A stretch of DNA of 63,397 nt, the filler included, from Platydemus manokwari (taxonomy: Eukaryota), in assembly GCA_037951405.1 (NCBI GenBank). It is 6 parts of 6 records of this genome, joined end to end, with 100 filler letters (N's around TTAATTAATTAA, not from the genome) between each part and the next. Parts side by side here need not be neighbours in the genome. Positions count along the whole stretch, not along the records: positions 53,490 to 63,397 come from JBBMOY011190433.1; 5 more parts are not named here. One strand, written 5' to 3'. Numbering within the stretch: position 1 is the stretch's first letter; every line of letters begins with the position of its first letter. Made by a program: the position numbers and the translations under genes. The notes under the pieces were generated by a model. The model saw only the letters and a list, made by a program, of their open reading frames with translations, ran no database searches and was not told the DNA's origin. Positions 9,110-63,397 of this stretch are shown piece after piece.

Positions 9110-9209
9110 NNNNNNNNNNNNNNNNNNNNNNNNNNNNNNNNNNNNNNNNNNNNTTAATTAATTAANNNNNNNNNNNNNNNNNNNNNNNNNNNNNNNNNNN
9201 NNNNNNNNN
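9110..9209. other. Artificial contig linker (44 N + TTAATTAATTAA + 44 N)
   Basis: Identical 100-bp structure occurs five times; the 12-mer is palindromic and puts TAA stops in all six frames. Confidence 0.98.
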
Positions 9210-10117: not shown

Positions 10118-10579
10118 AAGAATGTTAAGTATTTTATAATCATTAAGATACCGAGAAATATCCAATCAGAATTGAGGAATTTATCTATTATCTATTTGAT
10201 TAAAACAAAGCAAAATTTTTAAACAAATTGTAATTTGTTAAACTGCATTCTTAAAATTTTTTGTCTGATCATCTTTCGCTACCAGTTATAAACATTTCGT
10301 AGAACCCAATAACAACTTACAAGAAAAAGTACGAAATAACAATAAGGAACACAAGGAAATTAATCGGTTATCCAATGGTGTTTTCGAAATAAAAACTTTA
10401 AAAACCATTTTAGCAATGAACCATTCAACTATGATTAAAATATCGATATTATTTTTATAACTAATCCAATTTAGCCAGTCTAAATAAAACGTGTAATTAT
10501 CAACCAATCAAATTTCAATATTAAAAATCATTCTTAAATGTTATAAACAAAAATAAAAGTTTATTTTTATTCATAACAA

Positions 10580-13500
10580 ATGTCGAATTTGACAATTAAA
10601 GAAATATCTAATCTTTCACCAGGACACAATCACAAATGTGACAATGAACGATGGTTTGTTTTTCTAATAATCAGCATCTTGTGTCAATTGAGTGGAATAA
10701 CACTTGTTGGTCTCTATCGAGCCTTTCAAAACTTAGCTCTGTGGATAAGAAAAAATCAAGCCACCTCACACAAACCCATTGTTGACTATCAGTTGAACCG
10801 CAAACCTAATTATGTCGACACAAAACCCGAAAATGAAGTCCAGGTAGAAATAACGGATTGTTTCTTCGATCTCCAAGATTGGGCTGGTGAGATTATATCG
10901 GCACAAAATCTAGCCGGAAAAGCTTTGATGGGTTTGGTCTGTGCATTAAGTATCAGTTCGATTGGATTATTTTTGTATGAGCTTTCAATTTATGAAGGAC
11001 AAACCGAGATTTGTTTGAAATGGAATCGTTCAGTCACTCAACAATTGGATCTTGCTTTTAATATCATTTTCCTCGTTTATTTTTTATTACGGTTCCTAGC
11101 ATCCAATGATAAATTGAGCTTTTGGGTTGAATTGTATTCATTCGTAGACTTGTATACTGTTCCACCATCATTTGCTGTTTTGTATCTCGAACGCTACTGG
11201 ATAGGATTGAGATTCGTACGCGCCATGAGATTAATGACATTGACGGAAGTACTAGGGTTCCTAAATATCATCAAAAGTAGTAGCTCAATTCGTTTAAGTT
11301 ATTTATTCACAACATTTGTTAGTCTGGTAATCACAGCTTCTGGTTTCATACATCTCGTTGAAAGTTCAAGTACTCCATCAGCAGGAGATAATCCTCATAC
11401 AACGTTTTTGGATTTCATATACTTTATCATCGTTACAATATCGACTGTTGGATATGGTGACATTGTCTGTAAAACAGCACTTGGAAAATTATTGATGATG
11501 CTCATCATCTTGGGTGGATTGGCCTTGTTTGCAAATGCCATTCCAGAAATGATTGAAATTATCGGCAGTAGAAATCGGTATCGAAAACCATTCAGGAAGC
11601 AAAAGGAAAAGCAACACATTGTACTCTGTGGACATATCACATACGATTCAGTTTCCAATTTTTTAGCGGACTTTCTTCACAAAGATCGTGAAGACGTCGA
11701 TGTTCAGATAGTTATTTTGAATAATTTCCCACCGGAACTGGAATTGAAAAATGTTTTGAAGCAATATTTCATCCATGTCGAATTCTATCAAGGAAGTGGA
11801 ATGAATACAAACGATTTGTCTAGGATTCAACTGCAATATGCTGATGCCTGTTTGGTATTAGCTAATAAATATTCTGCTGATCCCGATGCAGAGGATGCTG
11901 CCAATATTATGAGAGTTATTTCAATAAAGAATTTTTGCCCTAACATCAAGGTCATTATTCAACTCATGCAATATCACAACAAAGCTTATTTATTAAATAT
12001 TCCCAGTTGGGATTGGAAACGAGGAGATGAAGCCGTTTGTTTAGCTGAACTCAAATTGGGTTTTATAGCCCAGAGCTGCTTGGCACCAGGCTTTTCCACA
12101 CTTCTGGCTAATTTATTCACCATGAGATCTTTTAAAAGCAATTCAAATCTTCCAAACTGGTTGAACTCATATCTTGAAGGAGCGGGAATGGAAATCTATT
12201 CCGAATATTTTTCGCCGGCTTTCCATGGATTAACGTTTGCTGAAGCGGTTGCGATTTCTTTTAAAAAGTTGAAGTTGTTATTGATTGCAATCGAAACGAG
12301 ATCGGCTTTTAATGACGAAAGCAGTATAGCGATAAATCCAAAAAATGCCATCAAAATTGAACAGGGTATGCAAGGTTTCTTCATTGCTCAGTCTGCCGAT
12401 GAATCGAAAAGGGCATTTTATTATTGTCAACACTGTCATAGTAATATTCACTACAGTTTAATTAAACAGTGTGTATGCGAAGCCAGTAAACAATTTCAAG
12501 AACGATTATATAAGTTGAGGAAAATGGTTTCCAATAAATCCAGACACATCAGATCGGAATCACAAAGACGTGATGGAAGTCGAGTAAAGTTGAGAAGAAA
12601 GAAAATTATCAGGCCCAATGAACGAAAAAGACCACCGAATGTTGTCAAATCAAACGTAAGAATTTCACCAAATCTTAGATTTAATGACCAAGTTTCAAGA
12701 AGATTTGATACTACAGGAATGTTTCATTGGTGTCCTGGAAGACCTATTAAAGATGTACTTCTCAATGACTCAGATCAATTGAAGATGTGTGTATTTTCCA
12801 ATCATATTGTTGTTTGTGTTTTTGCAGAAGCTGACAGTGCACTTATAGGCTTATGCAACTTTGTAATGCCATTACGAGCCAGCAATTTTCACTATAGCGA
12901 ACTGAGTTACATTGTGTTCATTGGAAACCTGGAATATCTTAAACGGGAATGGAAAACGCTAGCCAATTTTCCATGTCTATCAATTCTAAGTGGCTCACCG
13001 TTGAGTCGAACCAACTTGAGAGCTGTCAATGTTAACATGTCGAAGATGTGTGTGATTTTGTCATCGAAATCCAATGATAGTATTGAAGATGCATTTCTAG
13101 TTGATAAAGAAGCTATTTTATGTTCTTTAAATGTTCAAGCTATGTCATTTGATATCGACGATTTTAAAATCGAAAATTTTCCCGAACTTTTACCTCAAGG
13201 TGAAAAATCGGATCTCCTATTGCCCCCTGAAAATCATGTAATTACATTAGATGATAAAATATCAAGAAGCGGATCTGATATACGAATGATAACTGAATTG
13301 GCGATGGACAGCAATGTTCAATTCTTAGATCAAGACGATGAAGACAGTCCAGAAATGGATTTGTTTATGACTCAACCTTTTGCTTGCGGTCGAGCATTTG
13401 CTGTCAGTGTTCTCGATTCGCTAATGAGTACAGCTTATTTCAACGAAAATGCGTTGACATTAATAAGGACTTTAATTACTGGTGGTGCTACACCGGATTT

Positions 13501-13927
13501 GGAACAGGTTTTAGCTGAAGGTACTGGAATCCAAGGAGCTTATTTGACACCAGAGACTCTGGCACACCGGGATCGTTGTAGAGTTACAATTATTCAAGTG
13601 ACGCAGAAACCGTTGGCGGAAATATTCTTATCAAAAACTGATTGCATTAATTACGGATTTCTGTTCTTGGAGGCCCTAGAACGATTTGGTATTTTATGTA
13701 TTGGTTTATATCGTTTGATCAGCTTAGATAATCAAGATGACAACAATGATATCATGATAAATAATAAGAGTAACAAGCGTTACGTTATTACCAATCCTCC
13801 AGAATATTTACAGTTGCATTTTTCTGATATGGTCTATTGCTTACAGCAGTTCAGTGTACATTTGAATGTTGATTTTCGCAAGAACACACCGAAAAACATA
13901 GTAGACGACGATGAAATAGATGTCTGA
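10580..13927 (+). CDS. slo: Large-conductance Ca2+-activated K+ channel alpha subunit (Slo1/BK/slowpoke family), intronless, 1115 aa
   Basis: S0-S6 with DWAGEIIS, S4 [10 protein letters not shown] and selectivity filter TVGYGD. RCK1 [27 protein letters not shown] and [16 protein letters not shown]; CxxCH heme motif; Ca-bowl [14 protein letters not shown]; TQPFACG. Confidence 0.97.
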
Positions 13928-18196: not shown

Positions 18197-18296
18197 NNNN
18201 NNNNNNNNNNNNNNNNNNNNNNNNNNNNNNNNNNNNNNNNTTAATTAATTAANNNNNNNNNNNNNNNNNNNNNNNNNNNNNNNNNNNNNNNNNNNN
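18197..18296. other. Artificial contig linker
   Basis: 44 N + TTAATTAATTAA + 44 N. Confidence 0.98.
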
Positions 18297-25184: not shown

Positions 25185-26165
25185 TTATTCAAGTTTATGT
25201 GATGGTTCAATTTTCCAGGCTCCAAGCATATATCTCAAACGAATCATCAAAATATCTTTTGCCATTTGAAGCCAGGAAAATATGGGAACTAGTTTGGAAC
25301 CATCTTTTTCCGTCCAAGACACACAAACCTCACCAACAGGAATGCGAAAATGATTTGCGAGATACAATAAATCCACATCAAAAGCCCATCTTTCGACGTG
25401 GAGATTACCAAACAACAATCGTGCTGATGGTCGAGAAAACAACTTAAATCCACACTGTGTGTCTTTCACTCGAGAATAGCACAAGATCCAAACCCAAAAA
25501 TGAAATCCATACATCAGAATCGTTCGGAAAATAGATCTTTTAGCAATTGATTCTTTTTCTAAATGAGCTCGAGATCCACAAATTAATGCCATATTGCAAT
25601 CACTGCGATTTAATTGGACTTTCATTTCATCTTGTAAACTTTCTAATTCGGAAAATTTTGTAGCACCATCGGCATCTGCAAATAGCAATTCTTTACCACG
25701 AGCCGATAGCATTCCAAGTCTCACAGCACCTCCTTTACCCCTATTTCTTTCCAATGTCAATACTCTCACAACTTCTGTTGTATACATTTGAGAATATTGC
25801 AAAGCAACTTCTGATGTTTTATCACTACTGCCATCATCAACTATTATAATTTCATAAGACAGCGATTTTTCTGTTTTACATTTTTGTAAATATTGAAGTG
25901 CCTCATCCATCATCATGGGAAGCCTTATTTCTTCATTATATGCTGGAACAATAACCGACAAATTAATGGAACCGCTATCTTTAAGTTTTGGAAATAATTT
26001 ATAAACCTTGTCGATAGGATCATAATATTTTTCTTCTGAAGCGCTCCTAGTGAGATTTGGATAAGGATTTGTCATTAAGTAAATAAATACTAATATTACA
26101 AACAAAATAATTACAATGGTAGAGGAAACAGATACAAGTGTAAGTAATCCCATTTCCACAGTCAT
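25185..26165 (-). CDS. ALG5: Dolichyl-phosphate beta-glucosyltransferase (GT2), intronless, 326 aa
   Basis: N-terminal TM helix, LSVIVPAYNEEIRLP, YEIIIVDDGS, NRGKGGAVRLG, LFADADGATKF, ICGSRAHLE, DTQCGFKLF, RWAFDVDLL, WTEKDGSKL. Confidence 0.97.
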   Translation of the reverse strand: MTVEMGLLTLVSVSSTIVIILFVILVFIYLMTNPYPNLTRSASEEKYYDPIDKVYKLFPKLKDSGSINLSVIVPAYNEEIRLPMMMDEALQYLQKCKTEKSLSYEIIIVDDGSSDKTSEVALQYSQMYTTEVVRVLTLERNRGKGGAVRLGMLSARGKELLFADADGATKFSELESLQDEMKVQLNRSDCNMALICGSRAHLEKESIAKRSIFRTILMYGFHFWVWILCYSRVKDTQCGFKLFSRPSARLLFGNLHVERWAFDVDLLYLANHFRIPVGEVCVSWTEKDGSKLVPIFSWLQMAKDILMIRLRYMLGAWKIEPSHKLE

Positions 26166-28584
26166 GATTTCTATATTATATAATCTGACTAATAATTTAA
26201 AGATTCGTAGTAAATAAGATTGTATTATTTATTTAAACAAAAAACAAAAAAGTATAAATTTAATAAAAATAGTGTAATACTACTGTTCTTATGATCTTTA
26301 ACTAATTCGTTAAATTAAAAAAATTTAAAAATAAAAAATTTAATATAAGCCGTTATTAAAAGTACTTTATTTAATTATTAAAATTAATTTTAATTAAAAG
26401 AAAAAACTTATTTTTAATCTTATTTACACAATGACATAAATTAAAGTTTTTAATTTAATTTCATTAAGTACCTAAATGACTGTATTTTTCACATTGAAAT
26501 TAAAATTAAAAACTTAAATAAAACCAATTCAACAACAATAAAAATAATGAAAACCTTTAAATTAAATTTAATGACAGAACATAGATGAATTACCATTACC
26601 AAAAATTACCATTCAATGTTTTCCAATGTTCTATCACCGAAATTATAAACGTTACAGATAAATAATTAAATAAAATATATGTTTATAATTAAATTTTTAG
26701 TCAAAGTTTAATAGATAATTTATCGTAATCACATTAGTTTTATCACTGGTTAAATAATACTTTAAATTATTATTTGAAGAACGGGAATATAATACAAACA
26801 TTTTATTTATTTTTGGTTAATTAATCAAAATTTTGATTCTGGCTGCATTTCATATTATTTAAGCGGTTGATTTTCCTCACTTAATATTTTTCAGGATTTT
26901 CTTTGTGTTTGCTCATAAAAAGGAACTGTCAGAATTTTACATATGAACAAAGATGTAAATTACAATTGCGCGCACAGTGAGCATCAATAGCTGCAGATTG
27001 CGGAAGTCAAATTAAATATTGAAATGAATACTCAATATAGTCCCATATTAAATCAGAATTTAATATATAATATAACTACTATCTAACAGATTATGGAATA
27101 TTACTGTCAACTGTAATTTCTGTATTTTGACTTGAATTGTTTACTGGTCTTTGTATATTGACACGGAATTAAAATTTTCTTTTAACAGTTTCTCATTTGA
27201 AGAATCTTAATAAACTTTTACTGAAAATCACAAAGATCTATCTATTATATTAATCTGTTGCAGATTCTCGTTGTTGGGCGTTAGTTTATATATTTGACTG
27301 GTCCTAAAGGGGCTTCAACAACCGGTATTGAAGACCAAGCTGTAGGAAATGAGTTTAATGTTAATTTATGATTGTAGCGCAGAGGATACTGAGTCACCCT
27401 GGGCCTGAAATAATAATATGGGATTATGGAACCTTTTTTCGCAACTGATAAATAGAATAATAAGTTATGACAAATAGATGGTTTCAAAATTCCTAATAAA
27501 CTTTTAATCGTGACTAATTAATGTATTGATATAGCAAAGACAAACGCGATTGTGATTTTCAAAAAGCTTTAATTTAAGAAAAATGAATTCGAACAATTAA
27601 TATGAAAAAGAACACAAAAGTTTTGAATAATATCCCGTACCTCGCCTTCGCGATTAAAAGGTAATCCGGACAACGGACGAAGATATTAAATAATGCGGAG
27701 AGAGTTGTAACACTTCAATATTATTAATTGTAAAATCAAAATTAATTATTAATGACTAAGAATGAAATAAAACTTAACGACAATTAAATAAATTGTTACT
27801 ACAACGTTAATCATTTCTACGTGAGAAATGATTATCGGAGAAAATAGCTCCAAAGAAAAACTCCAACTACTGATATATATTCTCGGTGTGAAATCTCCCG
27901 CAGTTAATATCTGTCGTCCGGCTTAGAAATTCCTCCTTCAAGATGTCTCTTCAACGGCTTCTGTTGATATATTAAAATAATTTGTCCGAATTTACAAAAT
28001 CGATCAACCGAAATAATTCTTCTGAATTGAATTGATCCTTCTGAGTGCGTAACTTAGCTATTCGTTATTGTGCGTTTATCACTATAGCAGTTGTGATTGT
28101 GATTGTGGTACTGCTCTATGACCAGCGCCGCTATTTATACACACCTGGTCATATCCATTTTTCTCTCACGGCTCTTCATGCCGATTTTTGTCACTTTAAC
28201 TTCCTGCTTATTTTCACTTAGTCAGACTTTTTCTCACGGATTTTCAAATTGGATTTTATTTTGGTCATTTTTGAAATCATAGATCAAACAAATTTGTGTT
28301 TCTTCATCATCAAGAGAACTGACATCCATAACTGAAATCTGATTTCCAATATTTTAAAAATTTCCGTGGTCATTAGTATGTATTAAATTATTTTTAATTA
28401 TATTTCATATTTTAATTCACTACATTCGCTATGAATGGTTATTGCAACTAATTTATCTTAATTTGTACTTTATTACTTTTGTTTGTTTATATAAAACAAT
28501 TATATTTACTTTTAAAAACATTTTTAAAATATATTTTATTTTGATCAATTATAACGACTGTAATTCTGCTTTTCAAATTCGTAA

Positions 28585-32327: not shown

Positions 32328-32427
32328 NNNNNNNNNNNNNNNNNNNNNNNNNNNNNNNNNNNNNNNNNNNNTTAATTAATTAANNNNNNNNNNNNNNNNN
32401 NNNNNNNNNNNNNNNNNNNNNNNNNNN
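32328..32427. other. Artificial contig linker
   Basis: 44 N + TTAATTAATTAA + 44 N. Confidence 0.98.
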
Positions 32428-32789: not shown

Positions 32790-34373
32790 TTAAATTTCTG
32801 TCATTTTCTTTAGTTCAACCTTTAATGTCTTCATTGATCTTAAAAGTGACTCAACCGCTGGAAAGTCTTTATAAATACCACTAATCGAAAAACTGTCTAC
32901 TGTATTTAACAAATAAGCTACCAAATCCTTGTGTGATGTTAATAAGACTTTCAAATAGCTCATGATTTCGATGTCACTGTAATCATCAAATAAAACCGAA
33001 CAAAGATAGCTAATCCCGTGCACATTGTGTAATAATAATTCTAACAACTTTTCCAGATGAAATAATAGTTTTCCTCTCCTTGATTCAGTAGACTCAGCCA
33101 CTACAGTCCAATTTCTGCAGATACTCATATGAACTTTAAAAATATTATAGCACTTGATGTACTGAATTGTTTGAATGTAAGCCATGTATTTTTTTAAAAC
33201 CTCAATCAAAGTAGAAATTTCTCTTTCACCGGTTTCCGACATCATTTTACTAATGATAATGATCACTGTTGGTAAGTAAAATTTCAATTCCAACATATCA
33301 GAAATCAAAAATTCTATGAAGTCAATCAATTCATTAATTCTCCTTGTGAAAATTTTATCTTTTCGAATAATTAAATATTCAAAAGCTGTTTGATAATTTG
33401 TGGCTGATAAATCAAAAATTAGCAAATCACTTAGCTTTTTACCATCGAATGGACAACTTCCTCGTTTCATACAATATTTATTAATGCATTTTAAACATAT
33501 CTTGTGATTACATCCTGGAAATATGGCATAACTTGATAAATGAATGATTGACGCACACATCAAACAATGATTATAATCTGTCTCGGCTACATGAGGTTGA
33601 TGGAGTTCATACAGATTCCGATTGTCATTTACTTCACATATTACTATTCTTGTAAGGTGTTTTGATATGAGCTTAATCAATTTTATATCATTTTTTAGAT
33701 TTTTCAATGTTTCTGTCATTAAATGATTACGATAATTCCCCGAATCCCATGCTTTCAATATGATTTCTTCTGTCACGTGATTGCTGAATAACCCGTCCAT
33801 GTTTAGTATCATTTCATTATTCGCTTTCAATTTTAAATGAAACCCAGACAAACGACATGGATAGAAATTGTTTATAAGTTTCAAAATGAGTTTGCTACTA
33901 TTAAAAGTGGAAAGTACTTGCTCATAGGATTCGTCGATAGTGCTACTGTTCTGTTGGAAAAAACTTAGATAAACATTGATTTCCCCATCATCGATTTTGA
34001 AGTTACTTTCTGTCCAATTTTTCAATAATTGTTTCGAATTTCTTTTAAATGCTAGTTGCGTTTGCAAAACTTTGATATATACTGCTATATATGTTATCCA
34101 GATGTTTTCCATGTAATTCATCATGATAACTGAATCATTTAAGATTTCATATTGATATTCAGATATCGTCTTTTTTAAACACGACGAACCTGGATGTATT
34201 AAGACGATTTCGTTGGAGTTTATCATATCAATAGGGCAAAAAACGTTTTCCTTTAAAACGATTTCTACAGAACAGACGGAACAGAATTTGTGAGGGCAAT
34301 GAGAAAACATTATTACTTTGCAATCATCCAATAACTCGTAACAAATTAAACATATATTAGGATCGATATCCAT
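32790..34373 (-). CDS. Intronless protein with two RING-HC (C3HC4) fingers, each followed by a helical region; putative E3 ubiquitin ligase, 527 aa
   Basis: CLIC-x12-CPHKFCSVC-x11-CPID at the N-terminus and CLMC-x14-CNHKICLKC-x10-CPFD at about aa 270-310 (spacings approximate). Confidence 0.85.
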   Translation of the reverse strand: MDIDPNICLICYELLDDCKVIMFSHCPHKFCSVCSVEIVLKENVFCPIDMINSNEIVLIHPGSSCLKKTISEYQYEILNDSVIMMNYMENIWITYIAVYIKVLQTQLAFKRNSKQLLKNWTESNFKIDDGEINVYLSFFQQNSSTIDESYEQVLSTFNSSKLILKLINNFYPCRLSGFHLKLKANNEMILNMDGLFSNHVTEEIILKAWDSGNYRNHLMTETLKNLKNDIKLIKLISKHLTRIVICEVNDNRNLYELHQPHVAETDYNHCLMCASIIHLSSYAIFPGCNHKICLKCINKYCMKRGSCPFDGKKLSDLLIFDLSATNYQTAFEYLIIRKDKIFTRRINELIDFIEFLISDMLELKFYLPTVIIIISKMMSETGEREISTLIEVLKKYMAYIQTIQYIKCYNIFKVHMSICRNWTVVAESTESRRGKLLFHLEKLLELLLHNVHGISYLCSVLFDDYSDIEIMSYLKVLLTSHKDLVAYLLNTVDSFSISGIYKDFPAVESLLRSMKTLKVELKKMTEI

Positions 34374-35874
34374 TATTGAATATTTTTAGGCAAAATTCGT
34401 CTAAAATTTACAAATAAACAAACAAATTTTAATAATACAACAGCAAAAATATTAATAATTATTATTAATTAAGTATTTATTATATTCTAATTTTAGTACA
34501 AAAAAATTGTTTAATATTAGTTAAAAATATCAAATAAATCGTGAAATAGAATTTCATAATATTATATATGTATGAAGAAATTTATTAATAAATGCATTTT
34601 TAAAATTTTTAATTTCTAATTTAATACTAAATAAGAAAAGTAATTTAATTCAAACTTTAAAAAAAATTAAAATTTAAAATCATTTATTAAATTATTGTTT
34701 TTAGAATTGAAAATAATTAATGAATTTTTAAATTGATATTTATTTACTGATTAAAAAATGTATTAAATAAAATTTCTTTTTATAAGATGAAAATATTTGT
34801 TGTCTCATTATAATCAACGGATAAATTTATTTAAAAAAATAATTTATTAAGATTTCTATTAATTAAAAATCAGAACATTTGTCTAATGAAATTACCAAGC
34901 AAACAAATATATCGATTTTTACAGTATAATTTCCTTTTATAAACAAAATGGAGAAAAAAGTCTTGGTTCGAAGAAAATCTCCCAATTTTATCTTCATTGT
35001 AATAGAAAATTATTTTTGTATATTTCTCTCAAATTGCATGTATGGGATGCTCCATAGTCACCGAAAAAATTAAAATAAAAATCGATATGGATAAATCACA
35101 ATTTTAATGAAAATTCAACGATTTAAAGTTAAAATATAATAAAAATAATTAATTACTATACAAAAAGATTAATTGAATATTAAGAAAATTACTATGATTT
35201 TATTAGAAGCGTTGATTGAGACGAAATCTTGCAAAATAAAAACGGATTTACACTTTCGAATCATTGCTTATCTTTAAACATTGTCATGCCTACACAACCA
35301 AACAGGCATTGCAATCAATCAATCATAATTGACTTAGATGGAAAACCACTAATTTAAGAAGGGACACCACTGTGTCTACACAAAACCTATCAGCCCAATA
35401 GAAAATTGGAAAAGTAAAGGTCGAATCAAACTGTGATACAAGCGTGACACAAAAATTACACACAGATCTTGAGTATAAATACCGTTATAAAGATGGTCAA
35501 CAGTCAGTGCAAAGCCAAGTTTTGGTTATGTTTTTTGAGACATTGTATTAAATTTTGTGAGTTGCACTGAGTAGTACGGGTGTAGTTGAAAGTTAGGTTT
35601 TAGTTGTATTTTTGTGATATTTTGTAAGTCATACTGATTTGCACAATAATTAGAAATAGAGCTCACAACCTTTGATTATTGGAGTCAGCAATTATTTGTT
35701 AATTTAGAATCAAGATCCAATAGAAGTATGTTTTCAAAGATTAAAAATAATGTCGATATTAATTATAATAGCTGTCATGTCATTAATATGATCCATTTAA
35801 TGTTTAATAATTGCATGGCCGCTTGTTTGGTTTTGGATAAATCTGTATAACAATTGAATGTCGCAATTAGCACA

Positions 35875-37123
35875 TATCCTAAATTACGTGTATTACGACC
35901 CTACATCTATTAAGACCCCCCTCATTTTTAGATTAAAAATTTTAGAAAAATCTAAATTACTTAATTCATCATAGAAACCATGAAATTTTTCTTAACTCTC
36001 AAACATATCTTCTGTTTCCACGTGTTGACTAACCATTTTTGTAGCTAATTCTTCAATTTCCTCATCATCTGTGTCTGAGGAATGACTTTGGGCAAAAATA
36101 GCTTCATCCTCAAAGCCGTCCAAGACATTACAAATATCTGTTTTCTTAAATGATTTGATGATAACATCTTTCTTGATGGCATCCCATGAAGTTTTCACCC
36201 ATTGGCAGACTTTTGAGATTGTTGGCTTCTTCAAAAAACCTGATGGAGTTAAGTTTGAATCAGATTCACTCATCTTTTTGGTTTACTCTTCTTTCATGTT
36301 TGCCTTAAAAGCTTTATTGGTACTGACATCAAGAAGTTGCATTTGGCTTGTGATACCACCTGGAATTACTCCTAACTGAATTCTCAGTTCTTTTGCCTTT
36401 TTGTTTTACTTTTTCCGTCAAAGGCCCTTAAAATGATCAAAAACTAAAAGAGATTCCTTCTTCAACAGGCCTCCAAAACGTCTAGATCATAACTTACCAA
36501 ACCACAAGTCCATCCCTTGCTGGTCCATCCACCCTTTTTGGATGAACATGAACCAATACTCCTAGGGGATTTTGTCTTTAGACAGGATTTTACGTTTGAA
36601 GATTAATAGTGGAGGCAACTTGTTGCGATCAGCCATGCAGGTCAAAACACAGGTAAAATGACTTTTTTCATGACCTGTTGTACGAATTGCAATTGTCTTG
36701 GCTCCTTTCTCATCAATTGTGTGATTATCAGGACAATCAAAGTTCAGAGGTGTTTCATCCATATTGCCTATATGAGACAATTCATAGCTAAACAGTTGCC
36801 GGGTATTGATGACAAATTTGTGGAAAGATAGGACTTTTTCTTCATAGAATTTAAGCTTTCGTTGGGCTAACTTTGTTCTTATTGCCAAACCCCAATGTTT
36901 TCTAAATCTGTATCACCAAACTGGACCTCTCTTAGTGATATTTTGAGCTTGTGGAATTCTTAATCTATGATTTATCACCACGGCTCTTTGAATTGATCAA
37001 TATAAAATTACTCAAAGACTGATCAACAGTCATATATATTTAATATAATCATTTGTGATAAGAAATGGTTCTGTTAGAAGACTTTGTTAACACATCAGGG
37101 GTCGTATTACGAGAATTTTTATA
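35875..37123 (-). mobile_element. Internally deleted pogo-family (POGK/Tigger-like, DDE_1) DNA transposon with degenerate TIRs
   Basis: Broken frames IGNMDETPLNFD..GAKTIAIRTTGHEKSHFTCVLTCMAD..KLPPLLIFKRK, GWMD, VIPGGITSQMQLLDVS, LTPSGFLKKP..VCQWVKTSWDAI. Left end TATCCTAAATTACGTGTATTACGACCC is an imperfect inverted match to GGGTCGTATTACGAGAATTTTTATA at ~37098-37123. Confidence 0.88.
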
Positions 37124-44563: not shown

Positions 44564-44663
44564 NNNNNNNNNNNNNNNNNNNNNNNNNNNNNNNNNNNNN
44601 NNNNNNNTTAATTAATTAANNNNNNNNNNNNNNNNNNNNNNNNNNNNNNNNNNNNNNNNNNNN
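44564..44663. other. Artificial contig linker
   Basis: 44 N + TTAATTAATTAA + 44 N. Confidence 0.98.
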
Positions 44664-48227: not shown

Positions 48228-48345
48228 ATGTCTGCTTCAAAATTTACCAATTTTCTTGCTCAATACAAAGATAGTGAAACAAAAAAACTCAAGAACTTCA
48301 CCGCATCTCAATTCGCTGAAGTCTGGAGCCACTACGATGCCGATG
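48228..48345 (+). CDS. First coding exon of calbindin-32 / calretinin-family hexa-EF-hand protein (Cbp53E-like)
   Basis: MSASKFTNFLAQYKDSETKKLKNFTASQFAEVWSHYDADG|GTAAT matches invertebrate calbindin NF..QY.D.E...LK...A.QF..VW.HYD.DG. No further exon was recognised before 53389. Confidence 0.85.
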
Positions 48346-53389: not shown

Positions 53390-53489
53390 NNNNNNNNNNN
53401 NNNNNNNNNNNNNNNNNNNNNNNNNNNNNNNNNTTAATTAATTAANNNNNNNNNNNNNNNNNNNNNNNNNNNNNNNNNNNNNNNNNNNN
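53390..53489. other. Artificial contig linker
   Basis: 44 N + TTAATTAATTAA + 44 N. Confidence 0.98.
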
Positions 53490-53632
53490 AATAAATAAAC
53501 TTTTAGGTCGTTGGGAGAAATGTGTTGATAGCCTTGGAGCTTATTTTAATTAATAAAAAATATTTTTTTATGAGTTATGCTTCTTCAAATATGTGCATGA
53601 AAATCGGACATTTCATATGGGACAACCTAATA
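53490..53632 (+). mobile_element. 3' end of a further mariner family (transposase tail, TIR, TA)
   Basis: INKLLGRWEKCVDSLGAYFN*, then TIR (rc) TTAGGTTGTCCCATATGAAATGTCCGATTT and TA at 53631-53632. Confidence 0.88.
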
Positions 53633-53789
53633 ATATTCGATTTTTGTGCTTATTCCAGATACAAAACTTCCACCTGGTATTGAACATTCTACATTTATTA
53701 ACGTAATCTCAGGTAGATGTATTTTATTTTCTGATAAATAAGTTTGGGGAGTCTATAATTATTATTATCAAATACGAAAATAGAACCTA

Positions 53790-54170
53790 ATGTAATGATT
53801 TTTATATTTCCTTTCCTAATTATTTCGCATTTTAAAGTGGCTTTATCGGATCCTATTTTTACATTAAATATTGAGTTTTTATTACTATCAACTTGTGTAA
53901 TTCTATTAATTTCATACTAACCAACACTTTTTCGTATACTTTCATTTATATCAGGAATTTTTCTAGCATAAGGAGGAATTTTATATAATTTATTCTAGTA
54001 TAAAAAAGAATTATTATCATTAATATTATAAACATAATTATAAACACTTATCGACATTTAACCAATTTCATATTCAAATCTTTCATCTAACTGTAAATGC
54101 ATTGGAGAACTAAATTCCCATTCTGATTCTTTACTGTGCTATATTTTTTAGATATGATCTTAATCAAGTC
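53790..54170 (-). pseudogene. Minor capsid (penton, single jelly-roll) N-terminal half
   Basis: EFSSPMHLQLDERFEYEIG*MSISVYNYVYNINDNNSFLY*NKLYKIPPYARKIPDINESI...IGSDKATLKCEI matches Polinton penton F..PI.LD...YE.GL...YN.I.NI...NN.F....IP.G.YEI.DIN...NTLK. Confidence 0.75.
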
Positions 54171-54194
54171 AGTTAATTTCGCTTCAATTTTTAA

Positions 54195-54790
54195 TGCTCA
54201 CTTATACGAGTCTTGGCCATTCGGTGATAAATAAACCCTTTAGCTTTAATTTGTTTTAGAAACGGTAACTTTTTATAGCTAGTATTTTTTATAAAAGCAT
54301 ATAAAGCTCTTCCCTCATATGGATTTAAACCAATCCTAGCTCCTTTACCGCCAGTGTTTTCTTGTTTTAATTCATCCTTTGTCTTTAATTGTGCTAGTTC
54401 TTCCTTTATATTATCAAATTCTAAATTGGTTTTAACCAGCTCCGTCCCTGTTTTCTTAGATTATTTTGCTTCATTTACTGCAGTTGCGGACTCCATTAGC
54501 AATTCCTGTTGCTCAACCTAAACCTGCTATAATTGCTGGTAATGTGATTAATAATGGTAAAATTCCTCCAGATTTTTGTCTATTATAGTCTTCTTCATTA
54601 TCTATAAATTTTCTTAATTTGTTAATAATTTCTTTAGATAATTTTCTTTTTTCCCATCATAGTAAAATTATTTAGGATTACTAGTTTTTGTTATTTTTTT
54701 TAAAAGTTTTTCATCATTAATATTTTAAAAATAAATATCTGCAAGACAATCTTGAATACTATATCGCTGAAAGTATATCAATCATGGATA
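54195..54790 (-). pseudogene. Polinton/adintovirus core-like (adenovirus pX/pVI-reminiscent) protein
   Basis: RQKSGGILPLLITLPAIIAGLG*ATGIANGV/ATAVNEAK*SKKTGTELVKTN...TGGKGARIGLNPYEGRALY matches GGFLPL...AGL.A...GG.A.AVN..K...EL.RHN...GKG.YL.PY..G.GL. Confidence 0.75.
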
Positions 54791-54844
54791 TTTAATCTTG
54801 GAGGCTCTCTTTAAAGTCAGTCCGTTTTCAACCAGAGATTGAAT

Positions 54845-56072
54845 ACATCTGTCCAATTAATATTTCAACAGCTTTTTCTTATAATATACAACAATAAGCT
54901 TTGCGTTTTAAACCCGAAAGTTTTTCAATTTCAATTGATATTGTACAACCATTAATTATTAATTTTTCATCTTAAGCTTTCACATCGAAACAAAATATTG
55001 AGTATTAATTCTGAAAATCAATCACATTAAATTGAATTCTTTACTTAAATTAAGATATGCATCATAAGGAGCATCCTGATTATTTGCTGTGATATCAAAT
55101 TGCATTTTATTGACTGAACAGTTACTGTTATTTAATCTAACTTGTAATGATTTTATATATTTATCATTTCCAATATGTTGAATGAATTTTGAATTATTTT
55201 TAGTAAAGTTAATTTCAGGATCTTTGAAATCAATTACTGTTATATACCGTGGTCTATTTTAACAAAGTTACTTGCCATGTAAAAGTATTTGACTCAGGGA
55301 TATCAATTAGATTTGAAAATCGATTTAAATAATTACCTTGAATTGGCTTATCGGTTTGTAATATTTTCAATAATTCAAGTTCATTCTTTTAATCTAAAGC
55401 TAATTCAGGTATACAAAATTCCAGTGATTTAACAGTTAATTTTCCCTCTCCTTTTTTCCATCAAATATTTTAATATTTTCTTATCGTCTATTTTTCTGTT
55501 TAATGTTAAATTAATCGTCATCAAAAATAATAGTCTATTGCAGATTTCTAAAAATTCAAATATGGGTTTAAGAGAAATCATCCTGTGATCATGTTTTATA
55601 AATTATAAAAGGTTTATCTTCTTTTAAATCCTTTATTGTTTGTATCCGGATCTTCTTTTGTTAGATCTGGATCAATGATGTTAATTCGACAGTTCTTTCA
55701 TTAGATTGATCTAATAATATAAAATTTAACATACTAGATATTTCCCCAAAATTTGTAATATTTTCAATTTCATAAGTTCCTAATTTTAATCTCATGGAAT
55801 AAAATATATTAGGAAAGAAATTATTTTCTAAAGCTATATTTTCTCCTGCATTTTTTGCACTTGCATTTTTTTCTTTTTGTCTTTCTTAATTCAATTTCAA
55901 TTTCATATCTTAAGAAAGTATTACAAATATTCATCGGATTTGAAGTTTGTTGGGATTCAAAAATAATATATTTGAATTAATTTAAATTAGTAACTGTTGT
56001 TGCTGATGGATTAATGATACATAAATTTTCTTCTTTAATTTCATGTTTAAATTTATAAAAATTTTCATCCAA
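54845..56072 (-). pseudogene. Double-jelly-roll major capsid protein
   Basis: About 400 codons with stops and frameshifts: NIALENNFFPNIFYSMRLKLGTYEIENITNFGEISSMLNFI, NNKGFKRR, ISLKPIFEFLE, INLTLNR, KLTVKSLEFCIPEL, FTWQV..RPRYITVIDF, IKSLQVRLNN, YDAYLN, YSIFCFDV, KAYCCII. These follow the motif order of Polinton-like DJR capsids. Confidence 0.85.
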
Positions 56073-56179
56073 TTTTTTTTGTATTTTATTATAAAAAATT
56101 AAACTAAAAATGCTTTTTAATGATGAACTTTGTTCTTTTTAAAATACTTTTTCAATATCTTATTTTTTCTTTATTTATA

Positions 56180-57043
56180 TATATTAATTTATTTAATTTT
56201 ATTTAAATACCATTTATTGAATTATAAACATTATTATGTCATTCTTTTTTAGCTGCCAATAACTTTCATAATTCATAAAATACGGTTATAGGATTAACCA
56301 TTGGTAACAACTTTAGTCGATTCAGCTATCCTAATGACTTTAATCGATTATTATTTAATCCCGTTCCTGACTAACTGGGAATATTTTCAATCATAAAATT
56401 ATTTTGATTCATTTTTATTTTTACATCTTTAAGATATATTTAAGAAATATGTAATTGTTGCAAATTGGTGAACAGAAATTGCTGCTCTCCATAAAACCTC
56501 TAGATAAATATCTATATCTTTAACACGGAATTTTCCTTCCCTTTTTAGTCTTTCTACGTCTACTCTTCCAAGAATTGAATTATATAAATTTTCAACTAAA
56601 TCATCAACTAAATTTTTCTCCTTCAAGTTAAATAATTTAAAATTCTTGTTTATTAATAAATAAATTTGGGAAATTCACTCCATCATATACTCTTTCTCCC
56701 AAGTTTGGATAAATACTATCACCTTTACCTTTACCGTCTCTTCCATAAAATGTTTCTGGATTTATAACACAATTTTCACTGTTTATTTCACTTGGTAATG
56801 CATTTCTCACAAGTTTAAAATTCTGAATAGTTTCATTTAAAATTTAATTTGTTTCATTAGCAGATGTTTTTAAACCTCCAATTGCTAAGAAATTTTAGCT
56901 TGATTTTGTACAACAAGTGCTAATAAAGGTTTAGCAAATTCACTGATACCTCGATTCATCAAAATTTTAGAATATTAATTTGCTTCAGCTTCAGTACTTA
57001 TTTTATCTTTTCTTATTCTTTTGTTTATGTCAAAACCTCCCAT
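56180..57043 (-). pseudogene. Conserved Polinton/adintovirus-type ORF of unknown function (includes ORF 56429..56626)
   Basis: Ends with SGTGL...LPMVNPITVFYEL*KLLAAKKE*HNNVYNSINGI, resembling the DP.EL..RL.LL.A...AG.N...NEI..I C-terminal motif common in such elements. Confidence 0.55.
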
Positions 57044-57059
57044 TTTTAATTTGTAAATT

Positions 57060-57620
57060 TAAGTTGTTTATTCTTCATAGATAGAAAACATTAGTGCAAG
57101 AATTAGATACTTATTTTTTATCAAAAATTCTCATTTCATCATTTATTTACAAGAAAGTCAAAATTCCTTTTCTATATCATTTGAAAATAAAACAGAATAT
57201 ATTAAATCTTTATCTCCTTTATTTAATTTCAATAAAATAATAAAATTTGAATTATTCCTGATTGTCTTCCTTGGTAAATCATACCAATTTAGTGTTAGGT
57301 AAATACTATTATAATTATTATTTCCTCCTCTTGTATGAGCAGACATAATTTCCTGGCTTTTCTCTGAAAGACAATCATAAAAAATTATTTAATTATTTTT
57401 AGTTTTATTTAAATCTGAAGGGTTCATAATCTCATTGTATTTGAAAGTAATGATTATTGATATATTGCTTTTTTCTAGATGTGACAACATTTCAGCAATG
57501 AGTTCACAAATTTCTCTAATAAATAAATCTTAATCAAATCTGCCGTGTTCTTCAAATATCTTAATAATAATAATATCTTTTGATAATCCATTTAATAATA
57601 ATAATAATATTTCGCCTTCG
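57060..57620 (-). pseudogene. A32/FtsK-like genome-packaging ATPase, 5'-truncated (Walker A not seen)
   Basis: NGLSKD..IMNPSDLNKTKNN*IIFYDCLSEKSQEIMSAHTRGGNNNYNSIYLTLNWYDLPRKTIRNNSNFIILLK. This is a decayed Walker B (IFDD), RGRH arginine finger, YLSQ and IRxN motif set. Confidence 0.85.
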
Positions 57621-59236
57621 GGTAATTCAAATCAAGTTTTTTACTGAAAAGAATTTAGGTATGGTGAAACAGCATTTTTCAAAGAAAAAAAATAAGTATT
57701 GTTTATGTGACAATTGATCATTTACCTTTACCCAGTTGTATTCTTGTCTCGAACGATGTCCACAATTTATATGTTGTTCTTTACTAAGATCCGTGGTGGA
57801 TTAATTTGACAAGACCACTGGAAAATATTTATAATATTTTTTAATTAAAGTCTTTTTTTCCATTTCAATAGTTTCAATAAATCAATTGGTGATCACCAGA
57901 GTTGGTTTTTCAAAAAGAAATTCGTTGAATCAAATTTTACATTCAATAAAAGTTTAATTATTTATTTTTTTGCCTTCTCGTTTGATTACAACGCATTTCA
58001 ATTAATAAAATCATTGCTTGGGATACTCGTCACATGTATAACGAATTTAAAATCAAAACCAATCTCAAGCTAAGAAATATCTTTGAACATTGTTAGCATA
58101 ATATTAACAAAGGAATACAGAGTTTAGAACTATAAATAAGTTTAGAAATATAATTCTTGTGATTGTCTTCATACTATTCACAGAAGCTACTTCGAGATAA
58201 AACAGTGACCTATATATACTTCACAATTTCAAACTTTCTTTTTTTAAATCACATCAGAATAAATTCGATATTGACTATCTCCTTGGTAACGTAGTCTAAT
58301 ATTTATCATTATTTTGACAATGATCTTAATTTTTTCAATCATTAAAGAAATGGCAGCTTTCTTTGAGTTGGCAGTAGATAGTGTTTTGACACTTTAATAT
58401 TGAATCAAACTTGTAAATGGTTTATTGGAGTTTTCGATTTAGTGAGTCAAATTCATGGCTTTGGCTAATATTTATTCTGAATAGTAATTTTATGATTTTG
58501 AGATCCCATTTGTTTTATGCGATTTATATTTACTTGAAATTTTGTTCTTGCAAATGACAACTTAAATGACAACCCAATCTTCTCATCAAATAATGAAGTT
58601 AAAATCAGGTGAAATAATAATTATTTAATAGACTATATAAAAACATAATTTTACTAGCTTATATGAAAGGAATCAATAATTTTTTTTTAATTTAATTTTT
58701 TCTAAATATGTATCTATATATAAAAAATCGATTCATTAAAACATCGAAACTATATAAAACTTATGATTGATAAATGCTTTAGGAATTGGTAAAAAAGCTT
58801 AAATTATATCAATAAATATTTAAAATCAATTGTAACTCAGTCAAAAAGTAATTATGTTTGCAGCAAAATGTTTTCGGACCACCAATTAAACTGTTTTAAA
58901 AATTCTTGAAATTGATCTCTAGTGAATGAAACTTTAATGAGTTCAAAAAAATATTATTTATTTTGTGTTATCTTCGAATATTGACCCCAATTACGGGTAA
59001 ACTGCATTAATACCAGCTTAATGTTGTTTGTACAAGCTTTTTATTTAGTTTAAAGTTTTCTTGCACGTAGTTTTTCGCAGCACTCTAATCTACTTTAATG
59101 TTATTTGGAGTGTGTAACTCACCTCCTACACCACTAAATGATAGCAGCTGTAGGTGAGCATGTGTGGGCTTCACTAGTTTTATCTTTTAGTAATTTTATA
59201 TATTAATCTATAACAATATCTAGCGCAGAGCTACTA

Positions 59237-60784
59237 ATGTTACCAATCCTCAAAAATACTCTGAATTTATCAAATTTGGTGTGAATTTTGTATTTTTTGT
59301 TGAGAAATTGTTGAACTATTATTTTTAGGTATTCTCCGCTCGGATTAGCTGTTTATCACTTCCCAATTTCAAATTACATAGTCTCTCCCAACCTAAAGAG
59401 AAGGAAAACCTATCACCTGTTTGGGCATGGAATGAATGGGATACTTTGGAAGAAGTAGTAGTTGGGATTCCTAATGATGCAGTGTTGCCATACCCTTCAA
59501 AAGATGTCGCCGTAAGTTTATATCATTTCCGTATGAGTAGATATTCGTGTATCAGGCAACATTTGGTCATCCTAGAGTCCCATTTTTTAAAGAACATGGT
59601 GGGAAAAAATTTTCTGATGTTATGGGCCCAGAACTTTGGAAAAAAGTGGAAGACGAAGTTAATGAGTTAGTGCGGGTATTGGAAGGAGAAGGAGTCAAGG
59701 TAGTTCAACCAACACCTATTGATTATACTAGGAAATTTACCACACCAAGTTTTTCATCAACAGGTTTCTTTTATAGAAGAAAATAAATAATTATTTCGTA
59801 ATCTATTTCAGGTTTATATGCGGCCATGCCTCGAGATTTCCTATTGATAGTTGGAGATGAGATGATTGAATCACCAATGGCTTGGAGATGCAGATATTTT
59901 GAATATGAGGCATATCGACCTCTCTTAAGATATTATTTCAATGAAGGAGCTCGGTGGACTTCAGCTCCAAAATGCACAATGGAAGACGGCATGTACGATA
60001 TGGTAAAAAGTATTCCTTTTTCGAAAATTGAATTTTCTTCTCTTTAATGAGGAATTCGACATCGGCCAAAGCAAACCATTTAAATATATAACCACCGAGT
60101 TGGAACCTTGCTTTGACGCTGCGGATTTCATACGGCTAGGAAGAGATATCATTGGTCAACGCAGTCATGTGGGTAGCAGATAAACAAATAATCTCATTGA
60201 CAATAATAATAATAGGTTACAAATAAAAAGGCTATCCAGTGGTTGAGAAGACACTTAGAACCGAGTGGAATAAGAGTGCACGAAATCGAATTTGATGCAC
60301 TTTATTCCATGCATATAGATACCAATTTAATTCCAGTAAAACCAGGTTTGATGTTACTTAAAGATGGATTGAATTGCAAAAATCCTGCCCTTCTTGAAAA
60401 AAGTAAATGGGATATCATTCGTCTACCAAAAGGGCCTCATAGAGAAGGTAAAATGAATGTGATAATACAGATTAATTAAGAATAATTTTGATAATGCATA
60501 TATAATTATATTTGTTTATAGAACATTATAAATTTTTGAATTATCACGGTTTACCGAATAACATGCTTAGCATTGATACGAAAAGGGTTCTAGTTGAAAA
60601 ATCCGAAGAGTATATGGTGAAATTCATGGAAAATTTAGGTTTCAAACCAATCGCAGTATCACTGAAACACGCTAATAATCTCGGTGGTGGATTCCATTGT
60701 TGGACTTGTGATATCAGAAGACGTGGAACTCTTGAAACTTATTTTGATTGGCCGCAAGAAATTTTAGACAAATTAGAACCTTAA
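59237..60784 (+). CDS. GATM: L-arginine:glycine amidinotransferase-like (AGAT/GATM family), ~411 aa; exons 59237-59278, 59329-59511, 59556-59763, 59812-60002, 60052-60168, 60216-60447, 60522-60784
   Basis: [87 protein letters not shown]. The catalytic Asp/His/Cys are present, and introns of 44-74 nt restore a continuous frame. Confidence 0.93.
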
Positions 60785-63397
60785 AAATTTGCTCATTGTT
60801 TCGTTTTTGTTTAAATACACTGATTTACTTTAATCTTTTCTTGAATTTTTCAATGGTAAATTTGGATTTGAGTTTCTCTGAAAGACATTCTCGTCGAAGA
60901 CATCCTAATTTGGTAACTAAATACTGCAACTTAAGCCTAGAATGGAGCCTGAAAATAAAATGTTCAAATTTAAATAATTATATATTTTAATCGATAATTT
61001 TATTAATTTTGTAAATTGTTTTATAAAACAGCTTAAATGGGAAATATTATTTATTTCAAACCATCATGTTCTTTGTCAGAATGGCATCGCTGTAAGAATA
61101 TTAACATATTTTCTCTGTGGTAAACTAATTTTATGGAAATCAGATTGATTTGAAACACCAAAACCATGACTATCCTAATCATAGGATATTTTTCCCTTCT
61201 TATTAAGTCATTCTTTATCCATTCAGAAGGGATTTATTTCTAACAATTGTACCTAGTGTTCATTTAAGCAATGAATTTGTTAGATTTTCGATTGATTAAT
61301 CAGACTCAATGAAAAGTTATTTCACACCAAATGCGTTCAATAGTTATTAGAAGAAAAGAACTTTATTTGACAAACTTGTTGAAGAAAAATATGTTATGTT
61401 TTAGCCTCATGGATTTTATTATTTATAATAATTATTATTTTATTATAATTATTATGACAGTACAATGAAATTCACATATAGATACAAATTCAAATGAAAA
61501 CAAGTTACAATAATACAAACTAGAACATAAGGCAAATTACCAGAATGTTGGGTAAATCAATTATAATTATAGGTCTATTGTGTGATTCTATTTCTATAAA
61601 ACTTAAGATTTTTTGGAAATCTCTTATGGCAGTGCCCGTAAGAGGACTCAATTGATTTTATCGGTGGTTAGATCTAATGGTACCGTAACCACTACTATGA
61701 ATTTGTTTTGGATTTTAAGATTTTAGGCGTCACTTTTAATTTTAGAACAACTAGGTTCAGGCTGGAATTTATTAACAGATAGTTATACAAAAATTAATTC
61801 AATAATATTTCACTTTTTAGAAATTACTTTTCAGAGAATAATATATAACTTATGATATTGTGACTCGCAATAGACAAACTGGTGATGATTAAACTCGGTA
61901 CAATATTTTCCTTTAAATTTGATTATTGAAACCAAGCTACTTGACTGCTTTCTTCTTTCTTCTTTTTGTTGATACTTCTCAAAATATTTATATGAGAATT
62001 ATCAGTTGCAATCAGGTTAATTTGTTTCAAAAATCCCAACTAAGCAGTTATTTTCACGAAATCTATTGATTAATCTCAAAAATTCCAGTTATTTGGATAG
62101 AGTAGCAAATCGCTTCAATTGTGCTGTGGTATCAATTAGTCGTAGTAAAAAATTCTAATAATTATAATTATATTTTTTGACAAACTTATAATTTAGGATG
62201 ATTCATAAAAAGATTTTTATGTATAAATTATTGTTATTTATGATATTGTTATTTATTTCATTTGTGAAGCTATCAAAATTTATTCTCTAAAATTGTCATT
62301 ATATTATAATTATTTTATCATATTTTATCAATCCATCTGAAGAAGAAGTCGTTTATATTATGAAGAAAATTTATTTAATCAGAAGTTGTCCTATTCATTT
62401 ACCGTGAATTCGATCGAAATCGTTATTGTCAAATTATGTGCATCCAGTAGTCGCCCAGTTGAGAAATCCAAAAATTTCAATAGGTAGAACATTTATAGTC
62501 CATAATTTATAAACACCAAATTTCATATTTTCAATATACTTTTACCAATTGATCACGATACAACCCCCCCCCCAAAAAAAAGCGCACAATTTTTGTACTC
62601 GTTCTAGAAGTTGATCAAAATCATCTGCACCAGTATTTTTATTGTGTGTTTACTTAGAGTGTATTATTATTTAAATTTGATTATTCATTATAAAATTTAT
62701 ATAAAAATTAACTTCGATTTGGTGTTTTATATAGGCCATTTTCATTTACAGAGAAATTTAATAATTATTGTCGTTAGTTTTGTCATCTAATTTGAAGAAG
62801 AAAGAATCATTGAAGTAATCTCATCGTGTCTTAATAATCTTTGATAATAGACTGTGATAATCTTTTGATCAAATTAAATTTAATAATTAATAATAAATCA
62901 AGAAACTCGATTATAATTACTAGATCACATTTGCACAAAAATAAGTATAATTGATGTAACTATGAACGAGGCTGTTATTAAACTATACGGTTGCTAGACG
63001 AAGCTAAGTTAAACATTGAGGTAAATCGCACCTCTAGGAAATGACTCAGAGACTGATTTAAGTTGAGTGTTAGTTCAAGAATAATATTTTATTTTTATTT
63101 GTTTATTTTTAGAGAAATCAAAATATCATCTATTAAATTTGCAACAAACAATTCGATATTTATAATCAATATTAATATTAATTCATTTAACAATTATATA
63201 CACTAATTCAATTTAATATTGTCAGATTAAAGTGTAGCAAACAATAAAAAGTTTTCATAATTTGATAAATGAACACAATTTACATGCTGATATTCCATTT
63301 TTACAAACAATAAAAATATTCAAGTTATTGTCCTTTAATTTTGAACGTTCCCACACTCTAACTAATATTTACGTTTATATTATTTCAATGTACATTC

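Follow-up and report, generated by a model that had tools for sequence, protein, structure and literature searches.

What is the stretch of broken reading frames that lies 1.7 kb from a host glycine amidinotransferase (GATM-like) gene in Platydemus manokwari (GCA_037951405.1), and is it one of a kind? The window analysed here, i.e., the whole stretch of 63,397 nucleotides, is AT-rich (~27% GC) and gene-dense, and it is split by five identical spacers of 100 N positions, with the block in question on its last piece (53490-63397). The animal genes that it carries include a Slo channel, API5, a family-2 glycosyltransferase, and a RanBP-type zinc-finger protein; the top scores for the Slo channel are invertebrate BK entries (best 1187 bits, with human-type entries at 1076 bits), the highest of them presumably that of Aplysia. 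The frame of the GATM-like gene is open once five GT-AG introns, all of them short (44 or 50, 48, 49, 47, and 74 nt), are spliced out, and Rfam returned no RNA families over the window. From the evidence set out below, the block is very probably the dead remnant of one integrated animal Polinton/Maverick (adintovirus-type) virus, a member of a family with multiple copies in this genome.

Profiles of the intact relatives were searched against 1272 six-frame pieces covering the whole window, with stops read as X. Their matches were restricted to the block and to the minus strand, and they define five gene remnants over ~53633-57654 that are colinear and closely packed, in the order ATPase, conserved ORF, major capsid protein (MCP), protein-X-like core protein, and penton (Table 1); elsewhere in the window, the best E value of any of the five profiles among the 1272 pieces was 0.049. 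The five identities and their order are those of the original prediction, which had placed the block at 53790-57620. That placement stands, but the penton runs ~160 nt further to the left (to ~53633) and the ATPase match reaches ~57654, and, in place of the two ~60-aa fragments said to be all that the ORF track shows, a stop-to-stop listing gives nine frames of at least 60 aa. In the converse direction, all five ORFs of the metagenome locus L002 match the window block (E 1e-44 to 2.5e-5), and those of L005 that match it at E 0.01 are the ATPase, MCP, and core only. Because Pfam gave almost nothing on the broken frames (a relevant family in none of seven queries), the gene identifications rest on intact relatives, and because the ATPase and MCP were missed there too, we take Pfam negatives on decayed frames to be insensitive. 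Such relics escape both ORF-based and Pfam-based annotation.

Table 1. Features of the block and of the flanking DNA, in window coordinates
Feature	Position	Strand	Remarks
N spacer, 100 positions	53390..53489	.	Borders left end of the block's contig piece
Penton remnant	53633..54141	-	3-4 stops, 1-2 frameshifts
Core-type protein with adenovirus protein-X-like hydrophobic stretch	54281..54721	-	3-5 stops, 2 frameshifts
MCP remnant (double-jelly-roll family)	54834..56093	-	6-9 stops, 6 frameshifts; relatives all PF21738
Conserved ORF, several frames	56134..57043	-	C-terminal ~50 residues alone match relatives; putative start at 57043 (AAA-ATG context)
Packaging ATPase remnant (A32/FtsK-type), without first ~53 residues including Walker A	57071..57654	-	2 stops, 2 frameshifts; relatives PF04665
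Host glycine amidinotransferase (GATM-like), flanking marker outside the element	59329..60784 (start codon not set)	+	E 2e-25 and 1.6e-20 to L-arginine:glycine amidinotransferase

The ATPase profile matched 57598-57164 (E 2.9e-46), and the peptide of 57062-57619, translated through its stops, matched four of 81 candidate proteins, of which the top one (E 5.8e-47, 59% identity) is annotated as Pox_A32 (PF04665), the family to which Pfam assigns the ATPase relative P0002 (E 1e-9). This agrees with the A32/FtsK affinity first proposed for 57060-57620. Upstream of 57654, the first 53 residues of the protein scored 22-23, a score equalled by 72-82% of 816 background stretches, with a control piece at 170-192; a decayed Walker A had been suspected directly upstream of this position and was rejected, its score being that of the background. 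For the ORF that follows, "conserved" holds for the last ~50 residues only, because the upstream part (~56300-57043) had no match in one intact relative (E 36 and 0.42). Over the C-terminal part, the ORF aligns with its L002 counterpart at 56295-56101 (E 6.7e-7), the profile matches 56298-56206 (E 1.9e-5), and three stops and one frameshift are found. Another copy, on a 1998-nt contig with 54 differences, spans 56614-56915 of this ORF, and a protein atlas held no usable matches to its relative.

For the MCP, a single frame of 55022-55885 had 14 matches among 257 candidates, all in PF21738 (double-jelly-roll-like), with a best E value of 6.1e-25. The relatives span nearly the full length of the window MCP in six frame segments, which the profile places between 56075 and 54852 (E 6e-21 to 1.6e-7), and identity to the PF21738 proteins is 44-47% over ~390 residues; Pfam on the MCP piece of the window itself gave E 0.0089. 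A model (pLDDT 78) of the intact relative P0016, which shares 45% identity with the broken window copy and stands in for it, matches double-jelly-roll capsids in the PDB (E 8e-16; iridovirus, PBCV-1, mavirus, and Sputnik capsids) and varied viral capsids of the same fold in BFVD, and so points to the double jelly roll that had been foreseen for the repaired protein. The core profile matched 54712-54281 (best E 3.2e-9), and the core remnant aligned with a relative from L006 at E 3.6e-12. Adeno_PX was found in all three intact core relatives (E 5e-4 to 1e-3) and in the window core piece (E 0.0032). Because every one of these matches falls below the curated cut-off, "core protein" stays a label, reasonable for a function predicted from sequence.

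The penton is recognised by its profile in two stretches, 54141-53797 (E 4.9e-14) and 53752-53633 (E 2.7e-4), and by alignment with the L002 relative (E 1.5e-9), its extreme ends aligning weakly (scores 22-32). The intact penton relatives belong to no Pfam family. Their profile drew 54 proteins from 3026 candidates, one of which, at E 6.4e-30, is a protein named as the penton of Mayetiola barley midge adintovirus, with which the window piece also aligns pairwise (E 8e-9, 31% over 93 residues). The predicted structure of an intact relative, rather than of the broken copy, matches the mavirus penton first (pLDDT 90; E 1.2e-10), followed by the penton bases of adenoviruses, which supports the penton assignment; together with the fold of the MCP relative and the presence of an adintovirus penton in the family, it also argues for the Polinton/adintovirus affinity that the original prediction had suggested. 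In a protein atlas, the penton relative fell among unnamed viral clusters only (score 0.97). A tree computed in quick mode with 48 rows, leaving out 7 of the 54 matches as shorter than 200 aa, gave the window penton, which fills 44% of the columns, a long unplaced branch (end branch 2.08).

It is clear from the frameshift-aware alignment that all five genes align with intact relatives and that each is broken, as the hand translation had indicated. The roughly 890 codons aligned contain 17-20 stops and 12 frameshifts, and the longest stop-free frame over the block is of at most 89 codons. In the intact relatives, 6.4-7.6% of single changes make a stop; on that basis, the 17-20 stops over 892 codons correspond to ~0.08-0.12 substitutions per site after inactivation, a rough figure that carries no date, so that the description of the integration as old is only loosely supported. 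The right end is read as a truncation, because the first 53 residues of the ATPase are absent upstream and related contigs drop in depth there, reaching host level within ~150 nt of the ATPase break. At the left end, the contig piece stops ~140 nt beyond the last penton match. The term "partial relic" therefore fits the right end, which is cut inside the ATPase, but not the left end, where the contig piece merely ends. No working product of the five genes can now come from the window copy.

Linkage and copy number were addressed with contigs from the only public sequencing run in which the stretch was found (89% of words), a run that may be the assembly's own source. A single 4186-nt contig at depth 13.5 covers 57492-61677 with no differences and links 163 nt of the ATPase to the glycine amidinotransferase gene, bearing out the proposed connection of the block to host DNA. 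Over 53490-58200, there are 4629 contigs of at least 80% identity, 626 of them at 99% or above, 695 at 95-99%, 1275 at 90-95%, and 2033 below 90%, so that 3308 of the 4629 are less than 95% identical to the window; up to 94 contigs differ from it at a single position. Their density is 983 per kb on the block versus ~91 per kb on the neighbouring 5.2 kb of host DNA, roughly a tenfold difference. Summed contig depth, which is not a copy number and is inflated by short overlapping contigs, is 76 to 37,000 per bin on the block versus 14-96 in 16 of the 17 bins from 57793 on (326 in the other), leaving out the very high depth at 53490-53647, which may reflect simple repeats beside the spacer. These contigs do not separate genomic copies from free virus DNA, nor the host from another organism in the run. 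They nonetheless suggest that the family comprises at least dozens of variants and probably far more. The block is accordingly no lone or rare fossil: thousands of related contigs occur in the same run, and degraded copies are usual for these elements.

A metagenome scan with the alignment of MCP relatives reduced 291 pattern matches to 10 loci, each 6.7 kb or shorter, two of which (L002 and L005) hold intact versions of all five genes. Other scans found no relatives, whether of viral contigs (with P0002, A2, A5, A4, and P0105), of metagenome contigs with P0002, or of genome contigs with A7. The nearest sequences found are unnamed metagenome proteins, 56-64% identical for the ATPase, 44-47% for the MCP, 40-43% for the core, and 30-34% for the penton. 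Near the MCP, L002 and L010 carry rve integrases recognised by Pfam, that of L002 with a phospholipase-A2-like domain; such a region precedes the integrase in L001 and L002, with Pfam support for L002. No polymerase was recognised in the 10 loci (16 ORFs by Pfam; loci of at most 6.7 kb). Downstream of the penton in L005 is an ORF that we take to be protease-like on short motifs, with no Pfam match, and its position would fall past the end of the window's contig.

In the window itself, neither an rve integrase (profile from four related ORFs, best E 0.089) nor an adenain/Ulp1-like protease (L005 protease-like ORF as query, best E 0.47) was matched. Pfam, which had overlooked the broken ATPase and MCP, found pPolB in none of 24 flanking frames, and short polymerase motifs, a weak test, yielded a single loose match, at 47181 and so on a different contig piece. 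No terminal inverted repeat encloses the block among the longest 25 of 137 inverted repeats; none of four end hexamers lies at either block end, and no target-site duplication was identified there, neither natural end being present. With the copy truncated within the ATPase at its right end and bounded by the contig end at its left, the missing genes have no room to appear. Polintons are described as replicating with a protein-primed polymerase, integrating by an rve integrase, and encoding capsid, penton, packaging ATPase, and protease (PMC11161782, PMC8502044), and bona fide polintons as marked by pPolB and rve integrase (PMC11161782). Formal membership of the window copy, judged on sequence, is likely rather than settled, because neither defining enzyme is seen in the window (one weakly tested), though rve integrases adjoin the MCP in the two related loci.

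It is on this point that the original prediction went too far in holding that the gene set defines Polintons, since the account in PMC11161782 has MCP, penton, and ATPase common to virophages and Polinton-like viruses as well. The block could then be the relic of a Polinton-like virus, or a non-autonomous, helper-dependent module of capsid genes only, that never had pPolB and rve integrase. The failure to see either enzyme in the window and the short related loci without a recognised polymerase would fit such an origin. The mark of Polinton-like viruses and virophages would be a capsid module with other replicases or tyrosine integrases in place of pPolB and rve integrase, and a divergent MCP. 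However, close relatives in L002 and L010 adjoin integrases, the penton family includes that of an adintovirus, and a copy cut on both sides offers no space for what is missing, and we therefore consider this origin very unlikely. A shade less credible still is that the assembled block is a mosaic of repeat-family copies, or DNA of another organism mis-joined to the host gene. The region is highly repetitive in the run, which is possibly the assembly's own source, and no listed contig bridges the whole block, the identical ones leaving gaps such as 57431-57491. Against this, identical contigs of 341-740 nt, at the same depth (8-16) as the host-side contigs, tile about 2.8 of the 4.0 kb, the identical 4186-nt contig passes from the ATPase through the host gene, and the genes are colinear and tightly spaced, with a second copy, 79% alike, sharing the same core-penton junction. 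Proximity to a host gene (1.7 kb) in a gene-dense genome might also suggest that at least one of the block genes has been co-opted by the host, or that the copy is still particle-competent, but stops and frameshifts in all five genes, an ATPase without Walker A, and stop-free frames of no more than 89 codons leave this with hardly any credibility.

The dead remnant of an integrated Polinton/Maverick virus thus remains the preferred reading, and its history may be sketched as follows. A full element with a protein-primed polymerase and an rve integrase would have entered the germline near the amidinotransferase gene. Its particle would have an icosahedral shell of MCP and penton that the ATPase would fill with the genome, and the role of a core or membrane-active protein would fall to the protein-X-like product. 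A deletion would then have removed everything to the right of the middle of the ATPase from the window copy, which would have drifted neutrally by roughly 10%, and sister copies may have spread meanwhile. Any value of the locus lies in this family, as the related contigs reach a summed depth in the tens of thousands versus 8-16 at the window locus. A bolder and rather unlikely proposal is that the host, a small, AT-rich animal with short introns, carries a very large or still replicating marine-type polintovirus family with its own gene order, in which the window holds an older dead copy and the deeper contigs represent a recent burst or free virus DNA. If this were true and the host phylum were without reported Polintons, the host range would be extended and a system gained in which to seek real animal Polinton particles; if the high depth stems from free virus, or from a burst of recent date, in an animal with a compact genome, it would bear on whether animal Polintons make particles, which PMC8097293 describes as not observed.

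Degraded multicopy Polintons are already well documented in animals, and to these the block adds one ordinary dead copy. In published accounts (PMC8502044, PMC8097293, PMC11161782, PMC11131425, PMC12451622, bioRxiv 10.1101/2025.04.19.649669), 96% of 3511 vertebrate Maverick loci are degraded (PMC8097293), a similar adintovirus relic lies on human chromosome 7 (PMC8502044), some corals have hundreds to thousands of polintoviruses per genome (PMC11131425), and polintovirus regions exceed 10% of some invertebrate assemblies. What appears particular to the block, on the sequences compared, is a lineage nearest to unnamed metagenome proteins (30-64%), a compact-genome host, and a gene order unlike that of the three informative relatives. 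L002, L004, and L005 share with the window an ATPase followed by the conserved ORF, and L005 also an MCP followed by the core; however, these loci have core, ATPase, and ORF in a row (with the penton where the contig reaches it), with the MCP upstream in L005 and on the opposite strand in L002 and L004, whereas in the window the MCP lies between the ORF and the core, and the penton comes last.

With the adintoviruses (Adintoviridae, renamed Eupolintoviridae, in the class Polintoviricetes; PMC8502044, PMC12451622), the block shares an FtsK-type ATPase, a double-jelly-roll hexon, a homologous penton, unnamed conserved ORFs, and a protein-X-like ORF, a domain described as an adintovirus feature (PMC8502044), as well as the occurrence of degraded endogenous copies in animals. 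It differs from them in that pPolB, integrase, and adenain, the first of which serves to tell the Alpha from the Beta class, are not seen in the window copy, no phospholipase-A2 domain was seen on its protein-X-like ORF, and its penton is not grouped with support with that of Mayetiola barley midge adintovirus in the tree. The vertebrate Maverick fossils (PMC8097293) and the human chromosome 7 relic (PMC8502044) are described as having the same stops, frameshifts, lost terminal repeats, and many copies per genome. Vertebrate Mavericks are, however, described as two facing modules with the ATPase and capsid genes on opposite strands, whereas the window has its five genes on one strand, and the host genome here is that of an animal, compact and AT-rich, with introns of ~50 nt. 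Although the window copy is dead, and is likened to the stony-coral polintoviruses (PMC11131425) by description rather than by sequence, it has in common with them, as they are described there, a paralogous expansion to many copies within an invertebrate, detected in the corals by MCP, minor capsid, and ATPase.

The intronless frame of the Slo/BK channel matches BK channel structures with an E value of 0; other genes of the same genome have short introns. Since both this channel and the glycosyltransferase lack introns amid such genes, heavy intron loss or an origin as retrocopies is suggested. In the ORF at 32790-34385, the RING finger is under the Pfam cut-off (E 7e-6), more RING-like cysteine patterns were seen by eye, and an exact look-up of its translation in the protein collection gave no entry. 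The broken frames at 35992-36912, which by eye resemble a pogo/DDE-type transposase remnant, gave no Pfam match with the two pieces searched.

Features of the window and of the related metagenome locus L002
Feature	Position	Strand	Remark
Slo/BK potassium channel	10577-13927	+	complete; single unbroken frame, 1116 codons
Glycosyltransferase	25185-26228	-	without introns, like the Slo/BK channel
ORF with RING finger	32790-34385	-	531 codons, without introns; RING finger at start
Broken frames	35992-36912	-	putative pogo/DDE-type transposase remnant, by eye
Putative first exon, EF-hand gene	48228-48340	+	resemblance only
Five artificial spacers	9110-9209, 18197-18296, 32328-32427, 44564-44663, 53390-53489		identical
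rve integrase, zinc finger and phospholipase-A2-like domain	L002 5191-6606	-	one frame; Pfam

Each spacer consists of 44 N, a 12-base AT palindrome, and 44 N. The putative exon at 48228-48340 resembles the start of a calbindin/secretagogin-type EF-hand gene, and because no further exon of it was found as far as 59300, the spacer at 53390-53489 may join unlinked pieces. Among contigs of one public sequencing run, summed depth, which is not a copy number, reached ~330,000 at 53490-53647, far above all else, and probably reflects simple-repeat contigs. A single contig of depth 39 links the core ORF region (54544) with the final part of the conserved ORF (56207), bypassing the major capsid protein gene; it may represent a sister copy that has undergone deletion or rearrangement or, as its short side spans only 30 letters, a chance joint.

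The L002 frame contains an rve integrase (E 6.5e-13), a zinc finger (E 8.9e-4), and a phospholipase-A2-like domain (E 4e-12), and the arrangement in L001, a second related metagenome locus, is similar but interrupted by a stop. The phospholipase-A2-like domain of L002 shares a frame with the integrase, whereas in the published description (PMC8502044) the phospholipase-A2 domain is joined to protein X.
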